Assembly (NCBI GenBank): GCA_017412115.1 | Contig: JAFPYR010000017.1 | Coordinates: forward strand, 7,159 to 71,158 | From: Bacteroidales bacterium | GTDB lineage: Bacteria; Bacteroidota; Bacteroidia; Bacteroidales; UBA3824 | Length of the DNA stretch: 64,000 nucleotides | Direction of reading: 5' to 3' | Shown: positions 5,185-50,800 of the stretch, piece after piece | Numbering within the stretch: position 1 is the stretch's first letter | Layout: each line of letters starts with the position of its first letter | Translations under genes and position numbers: made by a program | The notes under the pieces: model-generated | What the model was told of the DNA's origin: nothing | Databases searched by the model: none | The model's input: the letters and a program-made list of their open reading frames with translations, nothing else

Positions 5185-5199
5185 TTTTATTCTGTTTTT

Positions 5200-5874: not shown

Positions 5875-5893
5875 ATCTTGTTTAATTTTAATT

Positions 5894-5977: not shown

Positions 5978-6728
5978 AAAGTGCATTGTTTAATCGTTTT
6001 TGCAACATTCGGATTTTAACTTTAAAAAGGTTTGTTTTGATACCTTTTTGATTGTTGATTGTCCGTCCGATGCAGTATTTACTAAATCCTGATTGTTTAA
6101 CGCCGTATCTTGCTAAAGCTTTTCGCAGCGGAGATTTCGGCGCACCAGCCTCGTGTTTGAGTTCCACCATTGCAAAATTATCGGTTTCGTGTGTTAAATT
6201 TTCATCCGTAAAACCTAATTCGCAATCAATAGTACAACGTTCGTCCATATCTTTTTTCACCAATGTTATTCGGTGAAAATGATTTTCGATAACGGGATTT
6301 AACAAATTAGGATTGCAGGGAATATGTTTTGACAAAAATTCATATTCCTCGGGGAAAATTTTGTCCAAATCCGTCATGATTTCAATACGTTTCTTTTTGG
6401 TTTTGCCTTTGTTGTTTTTGTGTTTAACCTCCAAAAACGATGTTTTAGTGTCCACATACATACGCTTTCTGACTTTGTAACGGTCGAGTTTTCCGTTATG
6501 ATGTGCATTAAGAAACATATTGTCAGGAGTGTCAAAATAAACGGTTTTGTATTCCATGTATCTCAATCCGCTGATTTCGACGATAAAATAATCATTAAGG
6601 ATTTCCGGCAAAATTTTCTCAAACAAAAGTTCCGTGCGTAAAGGAAATTTCGTGTCGATTCTGTTCATGAAATTTGCTTTACCGATGTCATCAAGACCTA
6701 TTGAAGTAAATTTTTGCAATATTTCCAT
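5976..6728 (-). CDS. VTC-domain protein (polyphosphate-polymerase-like, triphosphate-tunnel fold)
   Basis: 250 aa. The blocks 'NRIDTKFPL', 'YKTVYFDTPD', 'DRYKVRKRMY', 'SFLEVKHKNNKGKTKKKR' and 'AMVELKHE' match the basic/acidic beta-strand pattern of VTC/CYTH-type tunnel enzymes. Confidence 0.7.
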   Translation of the reverse strand: MEILQKFTSIGLDDIGKANFMNRIDTKFPLRTELLFEKILPEILNDYFIVEISGLRYMEYKTVYFDTPDNMFLNAHHNGKLDRYKVRKRMYVDTKTSFLEVKHKNNKGKTKKKRIEIMTDLDKIFPEEYEFLSKHIPCNPNLLNPVIENHFHRITLVKKDMDERCTIDCELGFTDENLTHETDNFAMVELKHEAGAPKSPLRKALARYGVKQSGFSKYCIGRTINNQKGIKTNLFKVKIRMLQKRLNNAL

Positions 6729-14800: not shown

Positions 14801-17800
14801 AGAACAAGAGTCTATATCCCTTGTATTACCTGCCGATACCGTAAACTCGCTGTTGGTTACCGTTACGTACGTAGAATCAGAACATCCCGACTGAGTGTCT
14901 TCAACAGTCCAAACAAGTACCGTAGCACCTTTTCTTGCATTGTAGTAATGAGAATCACCCTTATGAATATCCTCAAAACTAAAGTCAGAATATACATTAG
15001 ACTTGTGAAGTTTCCATGTACCTGTAGATGTCGGAGCAGTCGGTGTTATTGCACTAAGTTGATAATTAGGACCGCAATACGTAACATCAACGGCTGTAAC
15101 TTCAGGAGCATTGTTAGTAATCTTAATCACATCCGAACCTTTACAACTTTCTTTCGACAATACCGTCCAAGTTATCTCGGTTGTTTCACCGCGTTTAAGA
15201 CCTCTAACAATAGTTCTGTAATTAGTAGGATCATCAATATCAGCAGAACCCTCGGTTACACTCCACAAACCGGTATAACCATTGTCCGCAGGATTATTCA
15301 ATGCTGACAACTCATACGTTGAAGAACACCATTGCATATCATGATGTGTCAATGTAGCATCAGGCTCTAAGTAATCAACATAGATATTAACTGCATTAGA
15401 ACAACCTGCTTCGTTAGTAACCTCCCACTTGAATGAGTTCTTGCCTTTCTTCAAGTTCGTTGCCAATGCTTTAGGATTGCTTGCAGAAGTTGCACCGTCA
15501 ATCAAAACACCTCTTGTAGCACAAGTCCATACACCGTTTTCACCGGATTTAAGCGATGCTGAAAGAACCCTTTGTTCATCACAAGTAGTCAAATTACTTG
15601 CTTTGGCAATTACCTGATCACTCTTAATGTTCACATCGGCAGTTTCAGGACAACCGTTTCTTACAAAATGCCATGATAAAACTGCGGTAGCACCCGGTTT
15701 GATACGGAAGATTGTTTCTGCTACATCAGTATTTTCGATTGTACCCGTACCTGCACCGCTTTCAAGTGTCCAGTGTCCTGTACCACCTGTTGACGGAGTC
15801 GGATACAAGGAAACAATACTATCGCAAATAACATTGCTGTCGTAAATACCGGCTGAAATTTCAAACTGGTTGTTCTTAACCGTTACAACAGCCTCCTTAG
15901 AACATGTCTGAGTACCTGCCGATTTTTCAACGTGCCAGATATATCTCTCAGGAGTTTCCATTGCAATACCACGAACATAAGTCTCAGCAGCCGTAGAGTT
16001 ATCAAATTTACCCTTGTTAGAAGGCGTTGCATGTTTCCAATAACAAGTTGCATCACTCAAAGCATTACCGTTGATTACTGTCGAACCGTTACAAGTCGTA
16101 ATAAGTGGCTCTTCAACAGAAGCAGTTACCTTGCTTGACTTAACGGTTACAAACTTCTGATCGTAACACTTATTGTTGGTAGTAGATGTTACTTTCCATG
16201 AAAGCTGAACATCGTCATTGTAAGGAAGATTCATCAAAGCTATTGAAGACTCTGCCGTATTGCCAACAATATCAACTACACCTTTTTCCAACGTCCATTT
16301 ACCCGTGCAACCGCTCGGTAATACGGCTGAGAGTTTCTTGTTGTCTTCACAAGTGTAGATAACACCGCTCTCATCAACACCTGTAATCGAAGTATGAACT
16401 ACGTTGCTGATAATATTAACCGTAGCAGATTCTTCACATCTACCCTTTGTAACAGTCCACAATACGTAATTGTTGTTGGTATTGAAGTTAGAAACGTATG
16501 TCTTATTGTTTGTAGATTCAAATGTTACAACATCAAGAACAGTTCCTCTTTTCCATCTACCCGTTGCACCGGTACCTTCCAAATTGTTAGCTTCCAATTT
16601 CTCGGTATCTGAACAAGAATAAATCTTATACAAACCGTTTTCATCTGCCGTAACGTTCGTAATCTCAGCTTTAACACTATTGTTAGTAACTTTTACATTC
16701 TTCGAATCAGAACACTTACCTTTTTCTACCGTCCAAATCATTGTCGTAGTACCACTCGGTAAGTTAGAAATCTTAGCCGAAGCATTTGTTGATTCAGTAA
16801 CAAACGTTACATCTTCAGAAGTCGGAATCCAATGACCGAAACCTTTATAAGATAAAGTCGAAGGATCTGTAGCTGAGAGAATTGCTGTTCCATCGCAACT
16901 TTCATCAACATCTCCGGCTATAGCCTTAACCTCATTACTGAATATCGTAATCGTATCCTTAGAGGTACAAGAACCGTTCTTAACCGTCAAAGTAAACGTT
17001 ACATGACTATTTGGTGATATACCTGAAGCCGTTACATTCTTAGTAGTACCGCTGCCGTCACTATATGTAATATCACCGCTTGCATTAGACCATTGATAGG
17101 TTTCACCCGTTGCAATGTCAGCCGCTTTCAAAACAATTGAACCGTCGCAAGTCTGTGTACCTTCTTTGGTTCTTGAATTGTTGATTTCAGCCATTGTAGG
17201 TGCGTGGTTATGGATAATAACGCTTGCTTTATTTTCTTGACATTTACCTGAAATGTCGCTTACAGTCCAAGTAAGTTCGTTATCACCTCTTGCCAAATTC
17301 GTAAATGTAGTTGCCGAAGATGTCGAATTTGCAAATTTAACACTTGAACCTTCGGTCGTAGTCCATTTTCCTACAAATCCCGTAGCCGGCATAGTACCAG
17401 AAATTGAATATACACCGTCGCCGCAGACGTCAGTTTCATCAACTTTGATTACCGGGTTGTACTCGTAACTTCTTACGGTTGCAGTTACGTGGTCAGAACA
17501 TTCCGTCATCACGTTGTCATAAACAGTCCATCTCAAAACGACTGCACTATTAGCATCTACACCGTGATAAACGGTAGCCGAACCTACAACAGAGTTCAAC
17601 TTATTATCAGAAGAACCAAAGTAACCTGAGTAAGAGTTAGCCTCCTTAGACCATACACCTACTTCGCCTTCCTTACCCAAGGTAGCATACAATTCTACAT
17701 CACCGTTACATGTATAGTAATCGGTTTGAGCATTGAGTGCAGGCTTACGGTTGGTAAGCGTTACGAAATCAGTTGCCGAACAAGTCGTCTGAGGTGTTGA

Positions 17801-20800
17801 ACCGCGTTTTTCCGTCCATACAAATTTCGCTTTGTCTGTAAGACCGCTTACTACAATCTTATTAGTACTTATATTGCCTTCCACAATCGTAATACCGTCA
17901 GGAATTGTCCATTCGCCCATTCCTTTCGGCTGGCTTGCCTGGATACTAATATCATTAGAACCGCAAACATTACGCTTATTATCAACAACATTCAAAATCT
18001 CAGTCGTAAAGCTGTTGTCAGTAATTTCTACAATATTTTCAGCTTTACATTTCCTGTCTTCAGATTTTACAACCCATTTGAACTCGTATGAATCACCTGA
18101 AAGACCGGATACCGTAGCAGAGTATGATGTAGAGTTTTTAATAGTAATCTTATTGTCAGGATCACTAAAGTTCTTAACCCATTCACCGAAAGCATTGTTA
18201 TTCAAATCGCTTTGGCTTGCCTCAAGCTTTATGTTGTTTTCTTTACAAACCGTAAAGTTTGCCGGAGGATTAGAAGTAACCGCTGAATTCGTTACGGTAA
18301 CCTCTGCCGTCTTAATATCACAGTTGCCTTTCTGAACGTTCCATGTATATCTCGTTGAACCATGAGAGAATCCGGTTACTTCTATAGATTCAGTAGCAGT
18401 TGAATTAGAGGTAAGTTTAACACCGTTAGATGTCCACCAACCGCGAGCTGCTGACTCTTCAATACTATAAGCAGCAAGTGTAAGTACCGTATCAGAATTA
18501 CATACCGTAACATTTGAGCTAATCAATTTAGCCTCGTAGAAGGTATTGGTAACATTAACGGTTGCAGATGTTTTACAAATCGTTGAAGAACCGTCACCTT
18601 TAGCACGACCTACCGTCCAAGTAAATGCCGTCGTCGTATTCGGTTTCAAATCGGTAACCTTAACCTGACTTGCAGTCGTAGCATTGTTTTCGAAACGAAC
18701 ACCGCTGTCATCAGCCGTCCATTGTGTAAACGTTGCTTTTTCATCAACATCCGTAGCCGAAAGTGTAACAAAATTATCACAAATTACTTCACCGTCGTTC
18801 GGACTGTGGATAACTGCCTTATTCGGCAAGTTGTGAATTATAGTTACCTCACGGGTATCAGAACAACCGCCGTCTATTCTGCTAACGTGCCATACAAATT
18901 TGTTGCTTGCCTGATTGTCAAGACCGCTTACGATTGCGTTAGGATCGTTAGAACCGTTAGCATAAAGCGAACTGTTAGAGCTTACGAACTTGATACCATC
19001 AGCAGCCTCCCAATAACCGGTAGTTCCGCTTGGCAAAGTAGCTTTCATCTTGTATTCGTCCTTACAATCGGTGTAACCCAACTGTCCTGCCATAAACTCG
19101 TTAGCATTGAACATCTTATTCGTAACCGTTACGAAATCTTGTTTTTTGCAAACAATGATGTCGTTGCCGTCAGAGTCTTTACCTTCAAGGTAATAAACGT
19201 TCCAAGAGAACTTGTAATCACCCTTCTTGTTAAGACCGCTGACTGCCGTAACATAACTTGTAGAATTTGCAATCAAGTTAGTTGCAGTATAGCCGGTAAA
19301 GCCTTCAGGATATGACTCTAATTTCCAATAACCTTTGGCATTAGGTCCGTAACCTGAAATGTTCTTTGCCTGAAGTTCTTTGCCGTTAATTGAAAGTTCG
19401 TCAGCAGAACAAATCATTCTCTTAGACTCAATAACTTGTGCCTCAACATAATTGTTAGATACATTTACGATTCTCTCATCAGAACATTCACCCTTAGTAA
19501 CCGTCCAAGTAAAGACTTCACCGCTCGAAGGAATACCCGTTGCTTCAACTGTATATACAGAAGTTTCGCTTACGGTATTGCCGTTTACAAGGAACTTAGA
19601 ACCGTTGAGAGCCGTCCAAGTACCTTTTGAACCCGGATAAGCCGTAACGTTGTCTTCTGCCTGCAATGTGATTGTATTATCACAACTTGAAAGTTTGATT
19701 ACTTCGTTAGAATGCGGATAGTTTCCGTAATTAGCTTCAACATAATTATTAACTATCGTTACAGAAGCCTCAGTCTTACAATTACCTTTAGTAAGCGACC
19801 ACTTGAATACGTTGTTGTTAAGGTCAAGTGCCGTGAATACTACCGTAGTCTGATTTGCACTATAACCGTCTTTGAGTCTACCGCCGCCGAGAGAACTCCA
19901 TTCGCCCGTTACCTTATCTTTGTCGAAGTCCTCAACATCATAAGGTTCAGTGTTAAGAGTTATCTCGTTGTTACAAGTGTAATCAGCTGAAGTAATTTCG
20001 GCTGCAACCGGCATATTGTTGGTAAGCGAAGTAGAAGCTTCGTATTTACATTCCGGTTTGTCGGTTGCTTTTACAGTCCAATAAACCGTATTGTCGCCGC
20101 GGAGCATATTATTAATCGTTGTCAAAGAACTTGACACTGCGCTGAATGTTACACCTTGATCTGATGTCCATTTACCGGTGTAACCGCTCTGAGGTATTGA
20201 ACCTTCAAGATTTGCAGAAGTACCGCAGATAACTTTTGCACCGTCACCTTTAACAACAATCTGAGGTTCATATTTGTAATTCGTTACCTCAACCGGGAAC
20301 GACGTGCTACAATTTTCAAGAACTCTGTCGGATACAGTCCAAATCAAAGTCGTCTTAGAATTATCAGCCAAACCTCTGAACCAAGTCTTTGCTACCGAAG
20401 TAGTCTTTTCGTTATTATCAAAGTAACCCGCTAATGCAGATCTTTCCATAGACCAAGCTCCGTCGTAACCTGTTGCTGCAGCAGTTGCGTTCAACTGAAC
20501 GTTACCGTCGCAGGTCGTAGTATACTCCTCTGCCAAAGATGCACTTGCTGTAGGTTTGCGGTTATAAACAATTACCTTATCCTCAGCAGGACAACTGTTA
20601 CGAACTTCAACCCATTTCAAAGTTGCAGATGTCTTAACACCGCTGATGTTGATAATAGCCGAGGTTGAATTATCAATTGACACCTCTGTAGGATTCCATT
20701 CCCAGTGTCCTTCACCTACAAGGTCAGAAGCCTTAATCTTTGCCGTTTCACCGCAAATGTTATGCGACTGATTTCCTAAAGCATCTTTATCAACATCAAT

Positions 20801-23800
20801 ATCAGCGTCTACGGTAAAGCCTTTGTAATAAACCGTTATTTCATCAGGCTCACTCTGACAACCAGCCGGTGAAGTTACTGTCCAAGTAAATGTATAATTA
20901 CCACCGATGATATTACCGAACTTCGTATAACTATCAGTTGAATTAGTAAACGTTACGTCTGTGTAATTCAAGCCGCTGGTAGCTTTCCATACACCCGTTC
21001 CTAAAGTAGGAGCAGTAGCAGAGAGTTCATAGTCAGATTCTTTACAAACAACCTTATCCTGACCTGCATCAGCAGTAACATATTCGTTAAGAACTTTAAC
21101 AGAAGCTGTCTTATCAGGACAAGAACCGTTGCCGACAACCCAAGTAAATGTTACGGCTTGTCCCACCGGCAAGTTCGAAACATTAATTACATTGTTTGTC
21201 GTATTGTCTTGGAATTCAACCATAGCATTTGAAGACTCCCAGTGTCCGCCAACTCCGTATTCCTGTTTTGAATTGTTAGCAACCAAACGAACCTTAGAAT
21301 TACATACCAAGTATGATTCGTTATTATTAACCACCGGAGATTTTATCTCAGCCTCATAATACTGGTTGGTAAGAGTTACGGCATCTTCCGAGTAACATTC
21401 CTTACCCTTATTACCGTTAGCTCTTGCTATTCTCCATGTAAAGGTTGCCGAAGTATTGTTCGGAATATTGGAAACAACTACATTGTTAGAACAAGCCGCT
21501 GTTGAAGATACAGGCGAAACATTTCCGTTGTCATATACCCATGTTCCGATACCATGTTCCGGTTCGTTAGCATTAAGATTATAAGTATCTGTACAGATAG
21601 GAATACTCTTAACACCATTAGTGTAAATCCTTGCCTTATCAACACTTTCGTTGTGGATAACAACCTGAGCTGAATTTTCACAACCGTAGGGGTTAGTTAC
21701 CGTCCAAGTAAGTTTGTTAGAAGTAGCATTGCTCAAACCTACAACCGTTGCAGACGGATCGTTTGCTGCATTCGGATACATGGTTGAGTTAGAGGTCTTA
21801 AATGTTACATCCGTAGAAGAAGACCATTTTCCTGTCCAATATTTTGAAACACCATCAACAACAACCGGGTCGGTAGATAACGGATTAGCTTGGAGTGCGT
21901 ATTCGTCGCTACAATCCGTCCAATCCTCTGAACCGGCAGAAACGGTGAAGTTTCTGTTGGTTACCGTGAAGGTTGTAGAAGTGTTACATTCCCTGCCGTT
22001 AGCGGTATGAGCCACGCTCCATGTAAACGATGCAGTATTACCGTTAGCAAGGTTGTAATATGTAACCGACTTACCGGTTGTTTCAGTAATGCGATTAACG
22101 CCGCTGTTAGAGAAACTACCAGACTCGGCTTCTACCGTCCAAGTTCCATGAGTATTAATATCGTTCAAGTCGTTGTCGGTAGAAAGTTCAACAGTACCGT
22201 TACATGTGAACGGCTTAAACGTTGCAAGCGCTTTATACTGATCGTTGTAAATCGTAATATTGTCGCTTTCCTGACAAGAACCGTTATCAACAGTCCATTT
22301 CAAGGTTACACCTGCATTAGTAATGCCGTGAACATAAGTGTGCGGGTCGGTTGAATCGTCAAACGTGATACCTGCAACACCTGCGGGTACGGTTTCCCAA
22401 TATTGAGATACAACGCCGCTATTCAAGGTTTCACCGTGGAGCTGGTAATCACCGCCGCAAGCACTTGCGGAAACTCCGTCTGCAACCTTAGTATCGGCAT
22501 CTACCGAGAACATCTTGTTCTGAATAGAAACAACCGTCGAAGTATCGCAGACATTTATATCTGCTCCGTCAGCACTAATCGTTCTGTAAACATTCCAAGC
22601 AAACGAGTACTGACCCGTCTGAGAAAGACCCGTTACCCTTGTATCGTTTGCAGTAGAATTTGCAATAACGATAATCGAAGGATCAGCAATACGAGTGTCA
22701 GGATAAGATTCAAGTGTCCAATATCCGTGAACATTATTACCGTAAGCCGTCATTGATTCAGCTGACAAATCCACGTATGAATCACAGATATAATTCTTAC
22801 TGTCCTTAGTATCAGCCGCAGGTACTATACCATAGTTATTGATAACGACTTCGTAAGAAACACCCGGACAATTACCCTTATTAACAGTCCATACAAAGTT
22901 TTCACTGCTACCTCTTGTAATACCGCTAATCTCAATTTTGTAGTTAGTAGTCTCGTTGTCAATACGAGCATTACCTGTCAGCGTAGACCAGTGTCCCGAA
23001 ACTTTATCATCACCGTGAGGATTAAGAACCGCAGGATTTTCGGCAGCTAAAGTATACGAACCGCTACAAGTATAAGCATCAGCAGGTTTCTTACCGATAT
23101 TAACTTTATTATTAACAACCGTTATATGGTCTTCGCTTGCACAACTTAACTCCTGACCATCACGGTAAATTCTCCAAGTCAATATATTGTTACCTTGACT
23201 CAAATCGGAGATTTCAACCTCGTTTGCAGTAGAAACACCGTCTTTGAAGTTACCTTCACGATTATTAAACCAACGTCCGTGAACACCGTCTGCAAGAGGT
23301 GATGCCGTAAGTTTCTGAGTACCGTCGCAAGTTTCAACTGTCTCTTTGCCTTCATTTGTCGTGATATTAGCAAGACCGGGCTGAATATTCTTAATAACGA
23401 CGTCTTTGTAATTAGACTTACAAGACTCTCCGTTGTTGTTAAGAACAGTCCAACGGATAGTGTTTTCACCGAGTTGCAAACCTTTGACAACAGTCTTAGA
23501 AGCATTAACACTCACGAAGGTTATCTTATCCTTAGAAGTAAGTGCCGACCATGTGCCGGTGAAACCTTCCTCAGGCATATATCCTGTAACGGTAGTTTCT
23601 GAACCGCAAACCTCAGATAGAGCTTCAACGGTAGGCGTATATTTGTTATTAATCAAAGTTACGTCTCTTGAATCAGAACATTTACCGTCCTTTGTAGTAA
23701 CAGTCCAACGCAATTCTACTGAAGTATTTTCTTTGCCCTCAGCAAATACGTAAGTTGCGTTGTAAACACTTACATTTCCTGAGAATTCGCCGATTTCAGT

Positions 23801-26800
23801 AGAAACAACTTCCGACCATACACCCTTGTTTTCAACCGGATCTACGGCTTCAAGAGTTCTTTCTCCGTTGCAAGTGTAGTAAACCTTAGGTCCTGCATTC
23901 ACACCCGGAATATTGTTAATAACCGTAATAGCATCTTGTGCCTCACACTTGTTGTATCTCTCATGCCATACAAAAGTAGCCGAGGTATTATTGCCGAGGT
24001 CAAATTTCAAGGTTTCATCAGTAGAGTTAGACAAAGCCGTTACGCCTGAAGGCATCGGTTCCCACCATCCTTCACCGCCTACATTAATTGTCTGAGCGTT
24101 GATTTCATTCTTAGCACCACAGAATGTATGAGTCTTATCGCCCGTTGTTGCATCTGTTACAACGTCTTTACTCATATCAGCCTTGGTTGTAAAACCGTTT
24201 ACGTGTACTTTCTCGAAAGCTTTAGCATCACAACCTTCAGTACCGTTGGTTTCTACAAATCTCGGAGATTTAACCCACCATGTGAAGTTGTAATCACCGC
24301 TTGTGAAACCGTAAGCTTTCGTTTCATAGTTAGTAGAATTAGAGAAGCTAACTTCATTGTAAGAAACGCCGTCCGTACAAGACCAATAACCTTTCCATTC
24401 TACCTCGTCGTGATCTTTTGCACCGAGATGTTCGATTTCGGTATCACAAGTCCAAAGTTCCTTATCTGCCACAGCTTTAACGGTTTCGTTGTGGATTACC
24501 ACTTGAGCCGTCTTTTCACCGCATACTCCGCTAACCGTCCAAGTGAATGTCGTAGCACCGTAAGGCAAGTTGTAAGCCGTAATATTACGAACACTTGTTG
24601 TCTTATCAGTAGCATTAGAATTTTCACCGAACGTTACTTGCGTGTTGTCAGCTGACCAAACGCCCGTTACACCGTATTTGGTAACATCGTTGGCGTTAAG
24701 ATTTATATAATCACGGCAGATGTATTGTTCTGCAGTTGAAATCGAAGCTTCGTAGCTTCTGTTCATAACTGCAACACTTGCCTCTGATACACATGTAGTA
24801 TTGCCGTTAGGCTCTGTAATTCTCCAAATGAACTTCTGCTCCTTGTTAGCTGCCAAATCATAAACCGTTATGATAGCATCAGTGCTTGTATATCTCTCTC
24901 CGTTCTTATTCGGATTCTCTGCATATTTAACACCGTCAGGCAAAGTCCAAGAACCCGTACCCTTGCTCGGAACATTAGCTGAAAGTTTCAATGTAGTTGC
25001 GCAATGTTCGTAAGTAACAGGTTTGATAGAAGCCTCCGTAACCTGATTGTTAGTAATAACTACCTGCTTAGAATCTTCGCACTTGTCGTTTGCTCCATCG
25101 CCGTATTTATTAGTAACAGTCCATGTAAACGTCGTAGTCGTCTGGTTGCTCAAATTAGATACTTTAGCATTCTTATTTGTGCTGTTGTTAGCTTCAAAGA
25201 TTACGTTAGTATCATCAGTAGACCACAGCCCCGAAACTTTGTCAGAAGATATTGATTGCGGGAACTCACCTTGCAATGTATATGTACCGTCGCAAGCTGC
25301 CACGTCGTTTTCACCGGCAGAGAAGGTGAAGTGATGGTTTGCAACCTTGAATGTCTCTTCCGATTTACAAGTATTAGAATTTGACTTGTTAGTCAAAGAC
25401 CATTTGAAGGTTACGTTAGCACCGTCACCCATGCCGCGGAATGTTGCAGCAGAGCCTTCAGCAGTTACAACGTTATCAATATTAGCATCAAAAGAACCTT
25501 TCGTAGCCGTAGTAGACCATGTACCTTCCAAAACGCCGTCAATCAACTTATTGGTAGATGACATCGTTATAATACCGTTGCAAGTAGCAGGATCAGCTTC
25601 AATCTCAGGCGTGATTCTGTCGTTGTAAACCGTTACAATATCGCTTACGGGGTTCGGACAAGAAGACTTCGTTACCGTCCATTTAAGTTTAATACCCTCG
25701 TTTGTAATACCAGTTACGGTTACTCTTGAATCACTGTTAATAGAACCCGTACCTGAAACGATTTCCCATTTCCAAGAATCTGTACCGTTTACTCCGTAAT
25801 TACCTTCAGGTTTAGTCGGCGTAATTGTAATTCTATCACCGCAAACGCTGATTACTTTATCAACCATTACTGCACCGTCGTCAAATTTAGCGGCTGCATC
25901 AACCGTAAATTCACCCTGCGATACTGAAAGGCTTTCTGATTTTTGACAAACCTTCTGACCTTTAACCATTCTGTAAACAGTCCATGTAAACTCGTACTGA
26001 CCGTTAGCGGTAAGACCGCTTGCAGATGCTTGATAGTTGGTAGAGTTGTTAATAGTTACATCAGAGTAAGAAATCTTGGTCTTAGGCCAATCAGTCATCG
26101 ACCACTCTCCGAATACATCTGTACCAACTCTGCCGTATGCAGCAATTGATTCTGCCTTAAGATCTACATTATCACCGCAAATCATCAAGTTTTTGTTCTT
26201 GATTTCGGGTTTAACGTAGTTGTTAGTAATCTCAACACTTTCAGATTTGGTACAATTACCCTGATGTACAGTCCAAGTGAATATCTCCGTTGTATTAGGA
26301 TCAATACCATTAACGGTTACAACGTATGAATTTGAACTTGAACCGAAATCAATCTTATCTGAACTCCATTCACCCCAAGCATAATCGCTATTGTAATCAA
26401 GAGGATTAGAAGCTTTAAGCTCGTAATCACCGCCGCAATAAGAATCATTTTGCAACGGCTCACCCATATTAATCGTATTATTAACGACTTTTACAGATGC
26501 CTCCGTAAAACAATCTTCTGAACCTTCACGGAAGATAGTCCATTTAAATACCGTATTGTTAGGAAGAAGATTTTCAACGCCGACTTCCGTAGAAGTTGTC
26601 TCTCCATTATATGTAACCGCTCTGTTAGCAGACCATTTGCCTATTACTCCGGTTTCAGGCTGTTCTGCTTTAAGAGTTATCGTATTATCGCAACTTTCAG
26701 TCTTCATAAGATCCGAAATCATAGCGATACCCGGTTGAACATTGTTAATAACAGCACTAACGGTATTTTCACAAATCGTACCCGAAGTATTTGTAACTGT

Positions 26801-38800: not shown

Positions 38801-41800
38801 GAAACCGTTGTTTTCTACCGTTACAGATGTAGATGACGAACATTCCGTAACACCTTCAACACCGGCTACGGCATTAACATGATTCGTTATAGTCCAAGTG
38901 ATAACAGATTTAGCACCGGGAGCAATACCCTCATAAGTTACGGTCTTAACGTTAGAGGTTTCGGTCGTGAAATTACCAGTATATTTTTTCGACCAAACAC
39001 CGGTCAAGAAACCGTCGCCTACGTTGTTAGAAGTAGCAAGGTTTACTTTACCGTCGCAAATCGGCAACTGAGAAGTTATCGAAACCGTCGGTACAACCTG
39101 AATATTCTTTAATGTATATTTGTCAGATACTTTACAACCGTTAGAGTTCGTAATAGTCCAAACAAGCGTAACACCCGAAGTCGGAACATTCTTGAATGTA
39201 GGACTTGCCATATTAGTACTTGCAACATAATTAATTGCAGGTGTCGTACCGTCAGCCAAATACCATGCACCGGGTGCGTCGGTAGCAGTTGTAGCAACAA
39301 TTCCGTTGTATGTATCACCGCAGACATTGATTGTCTTTTCCTGTCCTACTGCATTGATACTCTTAACGGTTAAATAAACGTTCTTTTGTTGTTTACATAC
39401 TTCTTTACCTTCGTCATTAATGTGGTGATATGCAGTCCAACGGAAATGATACTGACCTTCGTGTGTAAGACCCGTTACAACGGTTTTGTTAGCAGAAGAA
39501 CCACTTACAAATACGATGTCAGACTCATTAACGTATGCTTTCTCCCAATCAACCAATTCCCAATATCCTACGGCATTATCACCGTAACCTTTGATAGAGG
39601 TAGCCGAGAGTTGATAATCAGGACCGCAAATTTCCTCAGAAACTTCTTCCTCCTTAGGCATACCGCAACTTTCAACCGTTACCGTGCTGCTTTCATTACA
39701 ATTGGCAGAACCCTTAGAAACAGTCCATGTAAATTCGGCACCCGTTTTCGGAATATCAACGGCTTTAACCTCAAATGTATTAGCACTTGCTACGGTAGCA
39801 CCGTTTACTAAGAAACCTGCACCGTTAGTAGCCGTCCAAGTACCTTTTGCATTAGCATACGTTGTTGTAGGATCTATTGCAACAAGGTCGTATGTACCGT
39901 CACATGACTGAACCGTCAAAGGCATATCAAGTTCCGCCTTAACACGGTTGTTATAAACGTTAATCGTATCAGCAGCGGCACAACTGTTATTAAGAGTAAA
40001 CGTAATAGTGTTCTTGTCTAAATCCAAGCCCGAAGCCGTAACTTTATAAGACTTATCATCGTAAGTGAAAGTAACATTAGAAGACGAAGCCTTCCAAACA
40101 CCTACAACACCGTGTTCAGGTGTTACGACTTTCAAATCAATCGAACCGTTACAAGAATTTCTGTTATCCTTAACGATTTGAGCGTCAGCAATTTTTTCAT
40201 TTCTTACGGTAACGGTTGCTTTCGAAGTACAATTCGGATTTTCATCATTTGTCAATGTCCACTCAAACGTGTTGTCGCCGTATGCCAAAGCACTTACCGT
40301 AACTTGCGCTGAATTTGTTTCAGTAAGTTTGTTGTTAGGATCCGTACCAAAATAAGGTGCAGTTTCTTTTCTCTTCCACTGACCCGTAAAGCCGGCAACT
40401 TCGTTACCAACCAAGGTTGTATAATCGTTACAAGTAACTGCATCAACAGCGTATGGTTCTGATTGCGCATATTGATTAGTAACTTCAAACTTAGCGTCAG
40501 CATAACACTCTTCGCCGTTTAATTTCTCTTTTGCCTTAATTCTCCAAGTAAATGTCTCAACCGAGTTAGGCAACAAACCTGTTATAGTAGCTCTGTTACT
40601 TTGAGTACTTACTGTAAGACCTGCTCTCGTAGTATAAATCCACTCACCGGTTTGAGTATCATCGTATACATCACCGGTAAGTTTAACAGGCTCGGTAGCC
40701 GAAGCACAAGCAGGTACAGTTGTAAGTTCCGTAACCTGAGGAGCAACATTGCTGATATTGTATTCTGCCGTAGCCGAACAACTATTTTTGATAGCAGTCC
40801 ATCTGAGAGTTGCAAATCTCTGACCCGGTTTGAGTTCGAAAGCCGAATTACCGAGCGTAGAATTTGTAACGCTGATAACATTATTACTATATTCCCAAGA
40901 ACCTACACCGACAGCCGTCAAATTACCCTTAGCACCGCAAACGGTAATATTATCACCCTGCATAGAATATGAGTTGTTGATAAAACTTACCGTAGTAGTC
41001 TCGGTACAATTAGCATTCCCTTTTGCAGTTACAGTCCATCTGTACTGATATTTACCACCGATTACGGCTTGAATATCTTTGATTTCAAGTACGTTGAGTT
41101 TAGCAGCCGTATTAGAAGGAACTGCAATATTAGCAGTCGGAGTTTTAATACATTCCCAAGCACCAGTCCAACCCGTTTCAATCGGAGTAGCCGTCAAAGT
41201 GGTTTTGTCTTCACAGATAACATTATCAACCTGCGGTTCGGTGTAAGGCGAAACCGTAACAGCGATAGGCTGTGAAAGCAAACGGTTGGTAATTTCAACG
41301 TCTTTTGACTTGGTGTTACCGCCGTTATCACCGCAAGAAGAACCCGTAATAGATGACTTAACAGTCCAACGGAATGTATAAGTACCTTGAGTTAAACCTT
41401 TTGCAGTAGCAGAATAATTGCTTTGGTTTTCAAACGTTACATATTCGGCAGCTTCTTTTCCGTCTTTCGTAGGACCGGCAATGCAAGTCCAATAACCCTT
41501 AGCATGATTATACTCGTCGGGATCTTTTGCAAGCAACGATACGGTTTCAGAACAAATAGTAGTTACTTGGTCTTTATCAATTGCAGCCTCAAAATAATCA
41601 ACTATAAATTCTCTGCTTACAGTTACGGGACACGTTGATACCGTATTATGACCGGTATTAGCTTTTGTTACCGTCCAATATACGACATTTCTACCGTATT
41701 CCATACCCGAAACCGTAGCCGACTGTTTGTCGCTGTTAGCAATCTCTGCATTTGGTGATTTCGCTTTATCAATTGTCCAAAGACCCGTAGCATCGGTAGG

Positions 41801-44800
41801 AGCATATTGCGCAGCACCGAGATTAGTATAAGTATTGCAAACAACCTCGTTTTCAAGCGGAGAATTGATAGCAACGTTAGAAGGTTTGTTGTTTATAATC
41901 GTAAGAGGTGCTGACGAAGTACAACCGCCCGGAGATGTTACCGTCCAAATAAATTCGTTAGATTTGGTATTGTTCAAATCGGTAACGAAAGCATTTTTCA
42001 ATGACAATTCCGAAGTCTCGATATGAGCCGTAGTTCCGTCTTTAATAGTCCACAAACCTTTGTATGATTTGCCGTCAACAGCATTAGGCAACTGGGCATC
42101 CATCGTAAAATTATCCTTACACTCCGTGATAACCGTCGTAAATCCTGCATTAGCAACGAATCCTTCATTATTGATTTCGATTTCTTTTTCAGAGGTACAA
42201 ACCTTATCGTTTGTATTTATTGTGTTTTTAAGTTCGTATTTAATTTTTGCTGTTTTACCCAAACCTACATTGCTGAGTTTTGCAGTAAAACCGTTAGTAG
42301 CATCCGTTACTTCAATAGTACCGTTAGAGCCGTCTGATGCAATAGTCGGATCTGCCTTGGTGTTACCGATATACCAATAACCCTTGCTTGAACCGTCTAT
42401 ACCCGTACCTTGCAATCTTACAGTCTGATTTTCTTTACACAAGGTTTCTTGGTCGATACGTGAAATCGACGCAGGAATAGTATGGTTGGTAAGAGTTAAA
42501 TCGTCTGACAATTCACAATTATCACCGCTCTTAACATGCCAACGCAAAACGGTTTCCTCTCTTGTAAGAGATGCTATCGTTGCATTATAAACATCCGTTG
42601 TTTTGGCAGCCATAGTATTTTCGTTTACTTTGAATACGCCCGGACCAGAAACAATCTCCCAATAAGCATTTGTATAAGAAGTCGGGTCAAGCGGATTCAA
42701 TGCGTAATAATCGTAACAATCAGCAACCGAAGAGTTCTTACCGGCAATGCCTTGGTCTGCATCAACCTTGGTATTAAGAACTTTGATTGTAATTTCATCA
42801 GAAGTTTCACATTTCTTGTAAAGTATTCCGTCTGCATTCTGCTGGTCATCACCCTTGGTTACTTTCCAAGCAAATTTATATGTACCGGCAGCCGTCAAAT
42901 TAGAAATATCAATGATATTATTTGCACCGCTTCTGGTACTAAGGCTAATAGCACTCGTTGCAATTTCAGCAGGATGTTTAACAATTGTCCAAGCACCCGT
43001 TGCACCGGCGTTCATCTTAATATCCTGAGCTTTGAGAGTAATTTTGTCATCACAAAGGTCAAAAACATAACTATCCGCCCTGTCACTTACATTAACATCG
43101 TTTGCAGTTGTTATCTTAGCGGTAACACCATTGTTAATCAAAGTGATTTCTCTTTGTGTCGTACAACCGTTTACACCCTCGCCCTTAGCAACCTGCCATA
43201 CGAATGTAGTACCCGTAGTAGAGGGTTTAACGTTAATAGTAGTATTGGTTAAATCCGTTGACGTAATTTGAGCATTTGTAAGCCATGTACCGCTTACATT
43301 ATCACCGTAACCCTCTTTCGGATTGTTAACCGTCAATGAAGTTTCACCGCAAACATATTCGGTATAATCATCTCCGACCTCAACGTAATTGTTTGTAATC
43401 GTTACAGGAGCAGATGACTTAACACATACGCCGTCGATTGTAACATTCCACCAGAAATAGTTTTCACCCTGCTGAATGTTGTATGCCTCTACAACGGCAG
43501 GAGAATTACCGGCAGTAGATTCTCTGAAACTTACGTTCTTTGTTGAAGCCCAATAACCTTTTACGTTACCCGTAGTAGGATTAGCTTTCAAAACAAGTGA
43601 AGGATCACAAAGCACACCCGATTGTGTCAAAGCGATAGCCTCGCCCGGATCTACGTTGTTAATCGTAACCTGTGCACTGATATTATCACATTTTTTACCT
43701 TCAGCCTCGTCAGGAATAATAGTCCAAGTAAGAGTATTTGAACCCTTCTCCAAATTCTTAACAACAGCATTAGGATCGCTGTTATCAAGGGTAGAAGCCG
43801 TATGATTATAGAACTTGGAATTACCGCCTGACCACTGACCGGTATAACCGTTAGGCAACTGTGCTGACAACTGAGCCTCAGAGCCGCAAACAGATTGCTC
43901 AACACCGGCTGAAAGTGTTGCTACACCGTAATTTCTAACATCAATAGATATTTTATCAACACAAGCCTCACCGTTTTCGTTAGTAGTACCGCTATTAACA
44001 TTCCACCAAAGTTTTACTTTGTCGTTGTCGCCCATAGCTGAGAACTGAGAAGTTGCAACAGTAGAATTAGCTATAGTAATTTTAGCATTAGCATCTTCTT
44101 TAGTCCAATATCCGAATGCAGGAGCACTAACTAGAACACCGGTCAAATCACCTTGTCCGTTGCAAACATATATGTCATCAGCCTCGGCTTTTACATGCAA
44201 ATCGTTAATAGTAACATCGCTCGTAGCCGTACAACCGTTTTTGTGAACCGTCCAAGTAAGATTCAAAGATTTGTCAAAACCTGAAACCGTAGCATTGTAA
44301 GCAGTAGAACCGCCTTCAAATTCAACATTGCCCGCAAGACCGTTAATAGTCCAATGAGCATATTCACCTTCGCCTAACGTACCGGGATTGGTAGCATAAA
44401 GCTTGGTTTTGTTTGAACAAACGTTCATCTCGTTTTCAGCATCCTCAGCATTACGCGTATAAGCATCAACCGTGAATGTAGCGTTGTTTACATCGATTTC
44501 GTAAGTTTCAGGAGGACATTTTTCACCCTCTTTACCGTTAGTAACAGTCCATACAAATTTGTAAAGACCGGGGAGATTAACGTTTTCAGTAATTTCAACT
44601 ACGTTGTTGTTAGGATGATCAACATCTGCAACTTTGGTAGCGAGGAAAGTACTGATAGGAGCTATATCTGAAGTCTCAACGCTGCCGTGAGCCATTATAC
44701 AAGTCCAAACACCTTTGGCGTCAGGATAATCTTTTAATGAATTACCTCTCAAAGTAACTTTTGCATTACCGTTAACATCGTTACAGAAGTTTTCGGGTTG

Positions 44801-47800
44801 AGTTCCGTTTGCAGCCAAGAAATTGTTTACAACGGTAAAGTTATCAACAGCCTTACATTCTGCATAAATGTTGCTGCCTTCAAAAGCCTCTACTTTATTA
44901 GATACAGTCCATGTAAACTGTGTTTCACCAGTAGATAAGCCGGAAACTTTAACATAGGTAGAATAAGCTTCATTAATATTACTGCCCGCAGGAATTGTTT
45001 TATTTCCGAATGTAACAGGTCTGTTAGCAGTCCAGAAACCGGTATAAGTCAATGTGTTAGGCAATGCAGTACTTTCCAATGTGTACTTACCGTCGCAAAC
45101 ATAATCACGCTCTTTAGAAAGTTCGGCAGATGCACCGGCTCTGTTTACCGTAATCTCATCGTCGCTCGTACATACCTTTGTCTTACCGTCATGAGCAGTT
45201 GTGGTACGGGTAACAGTCCAAACGTATGTGTTAGCACCCGAACCCATATTAGTAATATTAGTAACACTTGAAAGCGAATTTTCAATATCGCCCGTACCGA
45301 AACCGGGTTTCAACGACCATACGCCTCTTTCACTCGTACTCGTAACAGATTCAGCCGTCAAAGTAGCCTGACCCGTACAAGTGTAAATATATTTTTCACC
45401 GTTATATTCAAGAGTAGTCTTGTCGGTAATGGCACTGGTAATCTTAGCAGCAGTTGCAGAAGGATTATAAATAGATACAAAAGACTCTGCCGTACAAACG
45501 GGATTAGTATTCCAATTCAAACCTTTTGCTTTTGAAGCGGCAACAGCATCATCATCAACACGACGCGTTACCGTCCATTTGAATTTGTTTACACTATTTT
45601 CCAAATTCTCAATAGCAGCATCAGGACTCGTAGAACTTGCGTTATTAACAAAGTCCAAATTGCCTGTAATTTTTTCCCAAACACCGGAATAACTTACATC
45701 GCCTCTTTTTCCTTTAGTTACATATTGAGCATTCAAAGTATGATTGCCCGAACAATCAGTAGTGAAATCACTGCCGGCAGAAGTTTCAAAACCGTAGTTC
45801 GTAACAGTAATTTCATCATAACTCGTACACAACTGATTAGTTGCCGAGTTCTGCATTTTGGTAGAAACTGTCCAGCGGATTTTTACATCCTGACCGGGTT
45901 TTATACCGCGGTAGTAAATCGTATTGATATTGCTTAAATTAGTAAGTGTATTTCCGTCAGCATCAGAGAAATAACCTGATTTATCAACATCGTAGTCAAT
46001 CTCCTGCCAATAACCTACCGTATTTCCGCTTGCAGAAGAAATTGCAGGAACAGCTGAAAGTTGAACCGTACCGTCGCAAATAGGATTAACGGTATTCTGC
46101 TGAATCTTAACTTCGGGTTTAACGTTTCTGATAGTAATTTCAGAAGACTTCGTACAACCCATAGCAGAAGTTACCGTCCATCTAACGGTTACACCGTTAG
46201 CCGGAATATTACTGATAATCGGATAACGGTTAGCAGAATTAGCGAAAGTATTAGTAATAACAACGTTAGTACCTTGATTAACTATAGTCCAAACGCCTTC
46301 TTTAATATCTTTGTTAGCAAGACCTTCGGTTACACCGCTCGGAGAATAAGTGTCGCCGCAGACTACGATGTCCTGACCATTAGGCGTTGTGCCGTCGGCA
46401 TCAACAGAGAAGAACTCGTTATTAAGAGTGATTTCTTCATCATCAAAACATCTTGCATTACCCGTACCTTTTTCAACGTGCCAATTAAGTTTGTAAACGC
46501 CCGCCGTAACCATACCCGTAGCCGTTACGTTGTAATTAGTACCGCCGTCCGAAAGCGTAATGTCATTAACGGAAAGATCACCGGCTGCTTGTGTAACAGT
46601 CCACAATCCGGTTGCATCATCGCCGAATTTAGATTTCGGATTGTTACCCTTCAACGAAATAGAAGACTCGCAAAGCGGATTAGCATACGGTTCAACAGTT
46701 GCAAAAACACCGTTGTTCTGAACGTTGAACTCCTGAGTTGCCGTACAATTACCTTTGTAAATAGTCCATGTAAATGTAGCACCACCGGTTGTAATATCCG
46801 AAGTAGATACAGTTAAAACAGAATTTGTACCTAATGCACTGCTTGCTCTGTTAGAAGTCCACTCGCCTCTTGCCGGATACTTCGGACCAAAACTAAACAA
46901 TGTAGGATCTTTTGCTTCAAGTGTAGTTGTCTCACCTTCGAGCAAACAAACAAATTCGTCATATTTTCTTTCACTAACGTCAATAGAAATCATATTGTTA
47001 TAGATTTCCACTTTGGCATTATCATAACATTCACGGTCTCTTGTAGAACGTGTTGTCCATGTGAAAAGATTCATGTTGTTTACAAGATTCGTAAATCTCG
47101 TAGAATTAGAAGATGCACTATAACCGTCTGCAACTATGCCCGAACCTGTCCAATATCCCTCTTCATTAACATCAACGGGAATAGCATTCAAATCAATGTA
47201 ATTTTTACAAATAGCCTGCTCAGGTGTCGTAATTTTAGCCTTTGTAGGAGTATTGTTGTATACGTCGATAGTTTTATAATTTTTACAATCTCCACGAGTT
47301 ACAGTCCATGTGAAAGGATTCTGACCTTTTGTAAGATTTGTAGCTGAAGTTTCGCTTGAAGCAGCATTAGCAATACGTGCACCGGTAGTTACCGTCCACT
47401 CACCAACCCAAGGATGTCCTTCCCAAGTATCAGGAGGATATGAACCGTAAAGATTTACTTTATTTTTGCTTTCGTCATTTACGGCGCAAATATCTCGTTC
47501 TGCATCAGCAGCTACATTGTTATAAATATTATTAACAATAATCTGCTCAGCCGTAGATTCACAGTTTCCTTGATTAGAACGTACCGTCCAAATAAATTTA
47601 ACCACCGCACCTTCGGTAATACTGGTAACATTAGATTTTGCATTAGTAGGTTCTGTAATATTACCCGAAGCGGCATCGTTTGCTTTTGTCCAAGTACCTA
47701 CACCCTCAGAAGCGACAACAGCTTTAGCACTCAAAGAAGGTGCTGCATTATCTGATTTGTCGCAGAAAAGAATCTCAGCAGGAGAAGTTTCTGCCTGAAT

Positions 47801-50800
47801 ATAATTGTTTTTAACGGTTACTTCATCTTCGGTTTCGCAACCGGCTGCATTCCTTACATGCCAAACCAAAATGGCCTGTTCACCGGCTTTAATACCTGAA
47901 ACATTCGTAACACGGCTGTTAGAATTACTAATGGTAATGTCGGTTTCAACACCGCCTGAATAAGATGTAACCGTCCATGTACCCGTACCCGTTATATCAG
48001 AACCCTCAATCTGAGTATTATCAACGCTACAAGTAGGTTGTGTATAATCGTTATGACCTAATTGTGAAATATCTTGGTTATTAACATAAATATCTACATG
48101 ATCAGAACAATTGCCTTTTGAAACACTCCAACGGAATTTATAAAGACCTTTGTCTGTCAAACCGCGAACAGTCGTTACGTTAGTAGTCGGTGATGAGATA
48201 ACAATTGAAGCTGAATTATTTCTCATTGACAACGGAACGTCTTCCACTGTCCAAATTCCGTGTGCCTTGTTACCGTATTTTTCAATACCGTTTGCTCTGA
48301 TTGTAGTTGAGGTAGCGCAAGTGTAATAATTAGTCTGATCAGCACCCGTTGAAATCATATTGTTTTCGATAGTCAACTTATCAGGTTCTGAAGTACATGA
48401 ACCTTCTGCACTTGTTTTGGTAATTACCCAAGTAAGCGTAGATTCGCCTGCATTGGTAGTAGGAGCATGAATTTTTATTTTCGGACTTCCTTGAGTATAT
48501 GTTACATTGTCAGTTGTAACAAATGTAGGAGCAATACCGCCGGAAATTGTCCATTTACCGGTAATAGTGCTGTTATTATTGTCAGCGAAATTCTGCGGAT
48601 CGTTACCTTCAAGAACAATCGTTCCGTCACATTCCGTCTGATAATTCTCTTTGTTATAAATTATAGACTCAACTTTGTTGTTTACTACCGTAACGGTTTT
48701 TGAGTCCTGACAAATATAGGTAGCACCGTTTTTGCCGGTAATGGTTCTGGTAACAGTCCACATATAGTTCGTTTTACCTTTTTCCATAATGGCATCAACA
48801 ACATGTGCGCTATTGTCCTTAACGGTTAAAGTACCGCCGTTGTCAGATGTCCAAACACCCGAAATCGTACCTTTCGTAATAGTAGTTTCCGGCTCGTCGG
48901 TTTTGGGAGTTATCACCGGTTTGGGAACATCAGCAATAAGAGAAACCGCACCCGTACAAGATACATAGTTGTTATTCGGAGATGTTATCTTCGGCTCATC
49001 AGGTTTGGGATTGATAACATCAAACTGCTGCGTGCCGCTACAAGCCGCATGACCGTCTACATTAACGGTTAATGTCCAAACAAATTTATTAACAAGTGCA
49101 TTGTGCAAACCATCTACATGAAGCGAATTGCTGTTAGCAGAATAATCTTTGATAGAGGCTGCACGTGTCCAAACACCGGTATATGTAATCTGTTTACCGT
49201 CTTGTGTTCTATCATCAAAAGTTTGAGCTACAAGGTCTATTTCATCTGAACAATCAGTAATGATTTCCTCAGTTTCAGGAAGCGTAAAATGATAATTTTG
49301 TACACCGATTGTAGATTCTGTCTTACAACCGTGTGCACTTTCCACATTCCATTTATAAATTACGTAACCGCCTTCGGGGATACCGATAACTTTAACGACA
49401 TTGTTAGTTGACATTACGGCAGCATTCTCAATAGAACTTGACTCGTCAAGTGTTGACCACCAACCTTTTGCACCGGTCTTTTTGGTGTAGTCGGTACCTT
49501 CAAGTTCCATTGAACCGTCGCATGAATACTCATTCGGATGATACTGTTTCGTAGTTACATAAATATTATCGTCGTAAACATCTACTTCATTATAATTTGA
49601 ACAGCCGCTTTCCTTATTAGTAACAATCCAACGCAATTTAGTTGGCTGATCGTTCAAACTTGAAATTACAGCATTCTGAATACTTGAATAACGGTAATCT
49701 CCGTTAGAAGCATTATTTCCTTCGAATTTACCAGAACCCGACCATACATACCAATAGTAGTCAAGTTTTGATTCAACATCAGGCAATCCCGGAGTAAGCG
49801 TATATTCAGGACCGCAATTATAAACAACATTCGGATCGTATGTCTCGTCGGCATCCACCGTGAACGAACCATTGCGAACATATACATATTTTACTGCACG
49901 ACATTGGCTACCTTTGCCGTCCTTATTAGAAGTTGAAATACTTGTCGGCAAATCAACAGTCCATTTTAAAATATAATCATTATTTGTTGCTGTTAAGCCG
50001 TTAACAATAGTTCTCGGATTGTTGGATGAAACAATAACAACATCCGTAGGCCCTTCATACAATGACCACGTACCATACGCCTGCGGATGACCAACCAAAG
50101 CCACGGGAGTAGCATCTAATTCTATTTGAGAATCGCAAACGTATGCACGTAACGGATCTGTATAAGGAGCTTGAAAATCTGTTCTCTTAGTACCTTCCTT
50201 TACATAACGGATTATAGCCTCCATGTGATTGTTGTCAATTTTCACGAAAGCGGTATCCGTACAAATTTCGTTATTCTTATCGTCGTAGTTAGAAACAGTC
50301 CATTTAAACCACTGCTCGCCCTTAGGAACATTGCTAATTTCAGTTTCATTAGAATTAGCATTAACAATATAAGGACTTGCATTAGCACCCGTACCCGAAA
50401 CAGCACCGACATAAGACCATGTGCCTTTTGCAGTGTTGCCCCAGTTTATAATCGGGTTGAGAGCGGTCAGATTTGAATTTCCGTCGCAAGTTTCGTCATA
50501 CTTGTGCTGAATTTCGGCTTCAACGTGTCTGTTGATAACTTTTACACGAATACGTTTTGTACACAATGTATTATCAATAGTATTTTCTACCACCCAATCG
50601 AAATTAGATTCACCTTTAGGCAATTTGTAAACAGCCGTCTGTGATGCGGTAGAATTAACAATACTCGGAGTTATACCCGAGGTAGAACTAATAAATTCCC
50701 AATGTCCTTTACCCACAATAGGTGTTTTAGCAGACAAAAGAATATTACCATTACCCGTAATGCCGGTAAGACTTGATTTCTCATCAGCCTTAGTACCGTC

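Follow-up and report, generated by a model that had tools for sequence, protein, structure and literature searches.

An old, ordered 12-module super-repeat in a 17,169-residue putative surface protein of a Bacteroidales bacterium

The window analysed here is a 64,000-nucleotide (nt) stretch of contig JAFPYR010000017.1 (positions 7,159 to 71,158, forward strand) from the Bacteroidales bacterium assembly GCA_017412115.1 (lineage UBA3824). On its minus strand, positions 8873-60382 form one uninterrupted open reading frame (ORF) of 51.5 kb, stop codon included and with no internal stop, that encodes a giant putative surface protein of 17,169 amino acids (aa). All features of this protein are given below in window coordinates and lie on that strand. 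The start codon is backed by the near-identical N-terminus of the metagenomic relative P0015/L007. Residues 1-42 (60257..60382), read by eye, resemble a signal peptide (MNYHS...LFIIQTSAWG/Q), with a basic n-region, a hydrophobic core and an AWG/Q end, and are nearly identical in P0015. They are followed by an N-terminal region (aa 43-3278; 50549..60256), presumed to be the distal end of the protein, in which a module self-search found about 15 scattered modules together with module-free stretches. Aa 43-3278 gave no Pfam, NCBIfam or PDB sequence match, and a phmmer search of aa 1-3278 against the PDB returned zero hits; an AlphaFold2 model of the N-terminal 528 aa, built on a two-sequence alignment, had a predicted local distance difference test (pLDDT) score of 40.6, was unusable and was not used. 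Then come the super-repeat that is the subject of this report (aa 3279-14652; 16427-50548) and a C-terminal array of about 23 further modules to which module assignment gave no 12-type order (aa 14653-16892; 9707..16426). The protein ends with two classical PKD domains (~aa 16893-17079; 9146..9706), recognised above cut-off by PF18911 (68 bits) and PF00801 (57 bits) and matching the PKD domains of collagenase ColH, and with a predicted type-B C-terminal sorting domain (CTD) for a type IX secretion system (T9SS; ~aa 17080-17169; 8876..9145). The CTD scored 29.3 bits with TIGR04131 (cut-off 35, E=7e-7) and 21.8 bits with PF13585 (cut-off 27, E=2e-4). Over its last 120 aa the protein shares 38-54% identity (E=1e-23 to 1e-36) with the ends of P0018, P0019, P0021, P0025, P0030 and P0036, all annotated with PF13585, and the C-terminal 900 aa are collinear, at 27-36% identity, with PF13585-bearing proteins of 2,100-3,500 aa. 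Pfam and NCBIfam scans covering about 9,600 aa in total yielded weak K319L-like PKD matches in addition to the C-terminal PKD domains and CTD, and nothing more.

An iterated self-search from a single 100-aa seed resolved 158 modules of about 92 aa, contiguous over aa 2911-16412. Five positions of the module alignment are nearly invariant (C21, G39, W41, W73 and C83), and each module carries G-x-W and W-T-V motifs together with two conserved cysteines, the number of cysteines being exactly two in 134 of the 158. From an alignment of 145 modules, AlphaFold2 predicted a six-strand beta-sandwich (pLDDT 89.5), whose top PDB matches with Foldseek were 2yrl (a PKD domain), 9fly (the base of the fibre protein GhpA) and the PKD domains of AAVR, all of them weak (E>0.01). 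The module profile matched GhpA itself at E=5.7e-124, scoring highest (35-55 bits for each module) over residues 4747-5009 of the GhpA base, and it matched the PKD domains of KIAA0319L and KIAA1837 at E=8e-6. PF22352 (K319L-like PKD) recognised 11 of the 145 modules at E<=0.01, one stretch reaching 51.2 bits (cut-off 27), and homologues of the giant protein are annotated with the same family. Based on these fold, profile and family matches, the modules are remote members of the PKD-like immunoglobulin (Ig) fold. The same module family is common to many Bacteroidota proteins named for a 'gliding motility-associated C-terminal domain'. Outside the super-repeat, the C-terminal modules at 11258-14479 (aa 15302-16375) show a 2-module period: collinear high-scoring segment pairs (HSPs) are offset by 168-186 aa, the best partner of a module lies at +2, and this lag-2 pattern is shared by distant homologues.

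Within aa 3279-14652, 120 modules are arranged as 10⅔ copies of an ordered 12-module unit. An earlier note on this stretch of DNA had proposed about ten tandem units of this kind; the proposal holds, except that the array starts six modules earlier, the ninth unit has 10 modules and the last unit eight. Plain self-BLASTP returned the identity match only, and ungapped autocorrelation of the whole protein displayed just the 87-90-aa module period, indels blurring the 1,120-aa one. Cutting the protein into 600-aa pieces exposed collinear HSPs, each some 600 aa long, offset by ~1120, 2240, 3370, 4500, 5620 and 6560-6740 aa, the best of which had 46% identity over 613 aa at offset 2230; these are the diagonals at multiples of ~1,120 aa that the note had expected from a dot-plot. 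The best-matching module lay at an index distance that is a multiple of 12 for 86 of the 158 modules. Among modules 21-116, a period of 12 put 74 of 96 nearest neighbours in phase, and periods of 10, 11, 13 and 14 put 1-5 of 96. Of the nearest neighbours, 80% had the same position within the unit as the module itself (permutations: mean 7.6%, at most 21%) and 2.6% belonged to the same unit, and mean scores were 36 bits for same-position pairs and 18.5 bits for same-unit and unrelated pairs alike. Position-specific hidden Markov models (HMMs), tested by leaving out one unit at a time, placed 101 of the 120 modules correctly, almost perfectly in units 4-10 and partly in units 0-3. A neighbour-joining tree contained pure position clades of 3-8 of the 9-11 members and no pure unit clade larger than two. 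Modules thus cluster by position and not by unit, as the note had anticipated, and the in-phase neighbours, position HMMs and position clades bear out its claim of growth by 12-module blocks rather than by single modules. Module length likewise varies by position (Kruskal-Wallis P=5.6e-8) and not by unit (P=0.08), position 8 measuring ~107 aa and position 3 ~86 aa, and linker motifs are position-specific.

The array begins, beyond the range covered by the earlier note, with a partial unit 0 (positions 7-12; aa 3279-3894; 48701..50548), four of whose six modules were placed correctly in the leave-one-out test. Eight complete 12-module units follow, assigned by position HMMs and nearest neighbours: unit 1 (aa 3895-5074; 45161..48700), unit 2 (aa 5075-6254; 41621..45160), unit 3 (aa 6255-7366; 38285..41620), unit 4 (aa 7367-8489; 34916..38284), unit 5 (aa 8490-9640; 31463..34915), unit 6 (aa 9641-10741; 28160..31462), unit 7 (aa 10742-11867; 24782..28159) and unit 8 (aa 11868-12999; 21386..24781). 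Unit 9 has 10 modules and is without positions 9 and 10 (aa 13000-13939; 18566..21385), and unit 10 is truncated after positions 1-8 (aa 13940-14652; 16427..18565); both the gap and the truncation are common to the window and to L001, a relative described below. The ten places at which the note had seen an opening motif recur are all in frame in the one ORF and start modules m21, 33, 45, 57, 69, 81, 93, 105, 117 and 127. The motif itself is present at the landmarks from 38266 to 18547 but degenerate at 48682, 45145 and 41599.

A further level of order is found within the unit. Classes six positions apart (k and k+6) resemble each other more than other pairs do (mean 21.8 bits vs ~17.7; P=0.00036, or 0.036% of random class pairings), most clearly in the pairs 1-7, 2-8, 5-11 and 4-10, and positions 1 and 2 of units 1 and 2 classify as positions 7 and 8. 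These similarities make a 6-module block the probable ancestor of the 12-module one, and the hierarchy would therefore have three levels: module, 6+6, and 12-module block.

The copies are old. Units are 23-43% identical at the protein level, and a module-5 pair given in the note as identical at 45 of 87 residues was reproduced at 54-55%. Units 0-3 are equally distant from all others (~24-28%), and the period signal of units 1-3 is much weaker than that of units 4-9; units 5-9 are closest to each other, with units 6 and 8 as the top pair (43%). A 24-module, two-unit duplication was considered for the likeness of units 6 and 8 and rejected, units 5-7 and 7-9 being not correspondingly similar. 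At the DNA level, the longest exact direct repeat in the 51.5-kb ORF is 21 nt, imperfect repeats are confined to 30-58 nt over conserved codons, and blastn of the ORF against itself gave only 12 weak HSPs, nine of them at in-register offsets. The absence of long exact DNA repeats reported earlier is thus confirmed. The accompanying idea that recombination substrates have been lost stands in so far as DNA repeats are essentially gone, but a relative carries an exact 12-module indel at a conserved linker of 14-20 nt.

That relative, L001, is the closest one found: a 10.3-kb metagenome contig from JGI sample 3300035054 lying wholly inside the orthologous gene. Its modules are 71-94% identical to those of the window, without clear difference between positions (orthologues ~80% overall), and they run in the order unit 6 positions 11-12, unit 7 positions 1-4, unit 8 positions 5-12, then units 9, 10 and beyond. 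Absent from L001 is a 1,119-aa segment of exactly 12 modules, from unit 7 position 5 to unit 8 position 4 (23636..26992), both ends of which lie in the linker INNKYTP. The switch from unit 7-like to unit 8-like sequence occurs inside this linker, at about nt 1690-1720 of L001, where units 7 and 8 of the window share 14 exact nt. Because the modules missing from L001 are only ~40% identical to their paralogues, whereas orthologues are ~80% identical, the L001 lineage appears to have undergone a deletion (or to be polymorphic here), as opposed to a recent duplication in the lineage of the window. The ratio of nonsynonymous to synonymous substitution rates (dN/dS) between window and L001 is 0.23-0.31, and the giant gene therefore appears to be under purifying selection.

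A search of 1.84 billion representative proteins with a profile of the 12-module unit returned 5,124 matches at E<=1e-3, a handful of them full-length in few stretches; the module family is therefore very large. The ordered 12-type cycle was found in seven proteins (P0001, P0117, P0119, P0128, P0177, P0181 and P0199) and their contigs, and P0001 aside, the other six are 26-53% identical to the units of the window. Contig L013 (ENA ERZ28654247 scaffold_1502) has 52 consecutive modules in perfect order (2-12, three times 1-12, 1-5), and L008 has the order 7-12, 1-12, 1. L013 is collinear with aa 10116-13429 of the window protein at 44% identity over 3,452 columns, its units mapping in order to window units 6 (positions 8-12), 7, 8 (positions 5-12) and 9 at 35-60% identity. 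The L013 ORF from 4433 measures 7,095 aa from unit 6 position 6 to its end, and the equivalent part of the window protein, from aa 10106, measures ~7,064 aa. As these lengths agree to within ~30 aa, the number of modules in the C-terminal 7,100 aa has been conserved over deep divergence. The slot upstream of unit 6, taken by unit 5 in the window, is filled in L013 by a unit-7-like copy, which points to lineage-specific unit turnover. The labels of the related samples hint that the metagenomes may be animal-associated. Among more distant homologues (1,400-3,500 aa) that share the array-PKD-CTD layout, blocks repeat every 2, 4 or 10 modules and none has the 12-type order; descent of the unit from a free-standing 12-15-module protein was ruled out among those sampled, which had neither the 12-type order nor a period of 12. 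A homology search with units 5-6 found no close orthologue, just proteins 22-27% identical, and when genome contigs were scanned with the C-terminal 800 aa, the only matches were remote Flavobacteriales/Bacteroidetes CTD relatives (26-46% identity). T9SS-type domains and remote relatives from Flavobacteriales and Bacteroidales agree with a source in Bacteroidota. Two scans of metagenome contigs gave no match, and these missed the known relative L001 too.

At the other end of the protein, L007 (2302-11333) is syntenic with the window, with an upstream Virul_Fac gene that is 87% identical and a nearly identical signal peptide. Its first 1,600 aa are 31% identical to the N-terminus of the window protein and the next parts 38-47%. 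Such a comparison suggests that the hypervariable N-terminal region may be a fast-evolving working end carried on a conserved stalk. Every related metagenome contig shows at least one change of frame inside the giant gene (one in L001, about four in L007, two in L008 and about three in L013), and these are either sequencing or assembly errors, or signs of frequent pseudogenisation or phase variation.

The giant gene is flanked on the same strand by a 948-aa 'putative bacterial virulence factor' (Virul_Fac; PF10139, 542 bits) upstream (60854-63700) and, immediately downstream, by a 606-aa protein with a Cthe_2159 carbohydrate-binding domain (6746-8566). Domain scans further identified, at 2633-6728 on the minus strand, proteins with VTC, DUF4956 and DUF2490 domains, then a LytTR-type response regulator and a His_kinase sensor; this cluster, possibly concerned with polyphosphate and equipped with a two-component system of its own, has no evident tie to the giant gene. 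No PorE- or OmpA-like gene is adjacent, in contrast to sprB and ghpA. Opposite-strand (plus) ORFs of 150-250 aa lie inside the giant gene at 17832-18335, 18722-19315, 24128-24655 and 29132-29587, with further ones at 42536-43252, 46061-46816 and 54407-54988; biased codon usage in a long gene makes shadow ORFs the most likely explanation for them. D-[ST]-[AILVMT], the O-glycosylation sequon of Bacteroidota, occurs 34 times across 8873-60382 where a crude composition-based figure gives ~83, an apparent depletion.

Taken together, the protein is probably a T9SS surface protein in which a stalk, grown by in-register duplication of 12-module blocks, displays a variable N-terminus. This reading starts from direct observation of its anatomy, of the structure and age of its blocks, of its conservation, and of block-wise differences among its relatives. 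The protein would be exported by the Sec pathway through its signal peptide and would then cross the outer membrane by the T9SS through its type-B CTD. Its C-terminus would presumably be held at the outer membrane through a PorP/SprF-like protein, with the N-terminal ~3,200 aa distal, type-B CTD cargo being anchored through PorP-like proteins (PMC9143113). The array would have grown by repeated in-register tandem duplication of ~3.36-kb blocks, by unequal recombination or replication slippage between paralogous units, and multi-domain block duplication is the usual mode of repeat growth (PMC1553488). The oldest copies would be N-terminal and the youngest among units 5-9, most duplications being older than the split from the ~44%-identical relatives. 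Divergence to 23-43% would have left almost no DNA homology and so stabilised the gene. It would also keep neighbouring domains at ~18-20% identity and limit misfolding between them, a point familiar from work on titin domains. Protection against inter-domain misfolding by dissimilar neighbours is also discussed in PMC1553488. Rare later changes would have proceeded in whole-block steps at short conserved linkers, as with the 12 modules fewer in L001 and the extra unit-7-like copy in L013. The stalk would serve as a long spacer or fibre, with the number of units setting its length and the N-terminal region presented outward. With modules about 3.5-4 nm long, 158 of them would span on the order of 0.5 µm if extended.

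Several observations weigh against this reading. Both CTD profiles, PF13585 and TIGR04131, score under their curated cut-offs, and no PorP/SprF-like gene adjoins the giant gene among its neighbours within the window. The gap in L001 comes from one short-read contig and its junction falls in 14-20 nt of shared sequence, so that a chimeric assembly is possible, and the same contig carries a frameshift (~4028-4100). Duplication was no simple ladder, units 6 and 8 being closest at positions 1-7 and units 5 and 6 at positions 9-12; some events must therefore have had other breakpoints or block sizes, or conversion has taken place. The proposed function as a fibre, finally, is reached by analogy alone. 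Among the alternatives, that the periodicity is an artefact of mis-joining or duplication during assembly, or that the ORF is a non-functional relic, seems highly improbable. Giant repetitive genes are often misassembled, and several related contigs are frameshifted, but exact DNA repeats between units do not exceed 21 nt and so leave an assembler nothing to collapse or inflate, the 51.5 kb are free of stop codons, and collinear orthologues under purifying selection occur on independent contigs from at least five samples. The argument of the earlier note against an assembly artefact is upheld by these independent metagenome contigs and by their dN/dS. Equally improbable, and close to refuted, is growth by single modules, with convergence, or gene conversion at a spacing of 12 modules, giving rise to the position pattern afterwards. 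Nothing specific speaks for it, although the mosaic of closest units does reveal some exchange or irregular events; the ~600-aa alignments keep a constant offset across many module borders, linkers and lengths are position-specific, neighbouring modules are no closer than random pairs, and periods of 11 and 13 yield nothing.

A more serious alternative, if still an unlikely one, is that the 12-module unit is a functional structural period, in which each position has its own role, perhaps in lateral contacts kept in register within a multi-stranded fibre, like that of heptameric GhpA, or in the fit to a periodic partner, like that of titin and nebulin super-repeats, and selection keeps order and count. 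It is compatible with block duplication as the origin of the array. The order is kept over 52 modules at ~44% identity and in fragments only 26-31% identical, module length remains position-specific across units that are ~25% identical, as do linker motifs, and the length from unit 6 to the C-terminus has stayed within ~30 aa of 7,100 between window and L013. The gene is also under apparent purifying selection, and GhpA, which shares the module family, is a fibre of seven strands that its Ig-like domains hold together through mutual contacts. Homology-guided recombination alone, however, also yields conserved order and in-register change. Unit 9, without two of its positions, and an array that ends at position 8 speak against a strict need for a 12-fold register, both being tolerated and inherited by L001; L001 moreover appears to drop one whole unit, and orthologue identity is similar at all positions. 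A version of this idea, to which we give slightly less credence, holds that several chains assembling side by side, as in heptameric GhpA, or a periodic ligand might take their register from the 12 non-equivalent domain types, with block count acting as a length ruler for an appendage of about half a micrometre. The suggestion in the earlier note that the 12 positions are not functionally equivalent is not established, since clustering by position is the automatic outcome of block duplication without homogenisation and hence no evidence for different functions.

In the usual description, a giant bacterial surface protein is a string of single domains that are nearly identical. The window protein instead has an ancient three-level hierarchy (module, 6+6, and 12-module block repeated ~10.7 times) whose block order is conserved in relatives. 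Its novelty lies in combining known kinds, a fibrillar T9SS surface protein and a super-repeat architecture, and what sets it apart are its great size, its three levels of organisation, the extreme age and conservation of its blocks, and the whole-block differences among its relatives. Read as a stalk grown by block duplication, it illustrates how a 51-kb bacterial gene may stay stable once DNA homology between its repeats is gone, and L001 offers a direct example of a change in length by one whole block. It also defines an unannotated family to which Pfam and NCBIfam are nearly blind outside the C-terminus in the stretches scanned, and ties this family at the level of the module to GhpA, to our knowledge the only T9SS fibre with a solved structure. 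The array offers a testable bacterial model for super-repeats as structural register as opposed to frozen accidents of duplication. Should the 12-module unit prove to be a structural period, it would represent a bacterial counterpart of the titin and nebulin super-repeats in uncharacterised giant proteins of Bacteroidota.

Among known systems, GhpA of Aureispira sp. CCB-QB1 (PDB 9flp, 9fly; bioRxiv 10.1101/2024.01.29.577165) is built of homologous stem and base modules, and GhpA and SprB are both giant T9SS type-B surface fibres of Ig-like repeats (same source). GhpA is a heptameric fibre of 5,898 aa with 52 stem repeats, whereas the window protein, known from sequence alone, has 17,169 aa and ~158 modules; the higher-order period is 3 modules in the former and 12 in the latter. 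On the GhpA stem (9flp_A 1809-3641), matches of the window profile start every 248-249 aa (1809, 2058, 2307, 2556, 2805; 3066, 3314, 3563), and GhpA seems to have its own 3-module super-repeat. The GhpA hook has no sequence counterpart in the N-terminal 3,278 aa of the window protein by phmmer against the PDB, and the PorP/PorE-like genes found downstream of ghpA have no equivalent adjoining the window gene. Because its N-terminal region is without match, the window protein would not be a GhpA orthologue. SprB of Flavobacterium johnsoniae (6,497 aa) is comparable: it too is a type-B CTD protein of very large size and repetitive sequence, and it makes surface filaments and has a PorP-like anchor (PMC9143113). 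It is unlike the window protein, which is 2.6 times longer, in its repeat family and in having a sprF-like neighbour. The SprB repeat PF13573 was absent from the stretches scanned (aa 1-5000, 9600-11000 and 14001-17169), and the window protein therefore does not appear to be a member of the SprB family. Closer in layout are the 'gliding motility-associated C-terminal domain' proteins of 2,500-3,500 aa (P0018, P0019, P0021 and P0025), which likewise consist of a module array, two PKD domains and CHU_C, and whose C-terminal 900 aa are collinear with the window protein at 30-36% identity. They are 5-7 times shorter, with periods of 2, 4 or 10 modules and no 12-type order.

In its architecture, with an ordered block whose same-position domains are the most alike, the window protein fits the super-repeat class, with no homology implied. 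The super-repeats of titin comprise 7 and 11 domains. As in the window protein, an ordered multi-domain block is repeated in tandem in titin and nebulin, with same-position domains closer than neighbours and with duplications concentrated towards mid-array (Björklund et al. 2006, PMC1553488); the nebulin super-repeat has 7 domains (same source). These proteins differ in being eukaryotic, intracellular and unrelated in sequence, and their period fits a partner filament, whereas the register of the window protein is broken twice. The RTX adhesins MpIBP/MpAFP provide a parallel, with a chain of Ig-like beta-sandwich extender domains that projects a binding region far from the cell (PMC4083281 and PMC7493085). 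They are assembled from ~120 identical or near-identical single-domain repeats of 104 aa, leave the cell through a type I system and owe their stiffness to Ca2+, in contrast to the window protein, whose copies are ancient and highly diverged and come in blocks of 12 domains.

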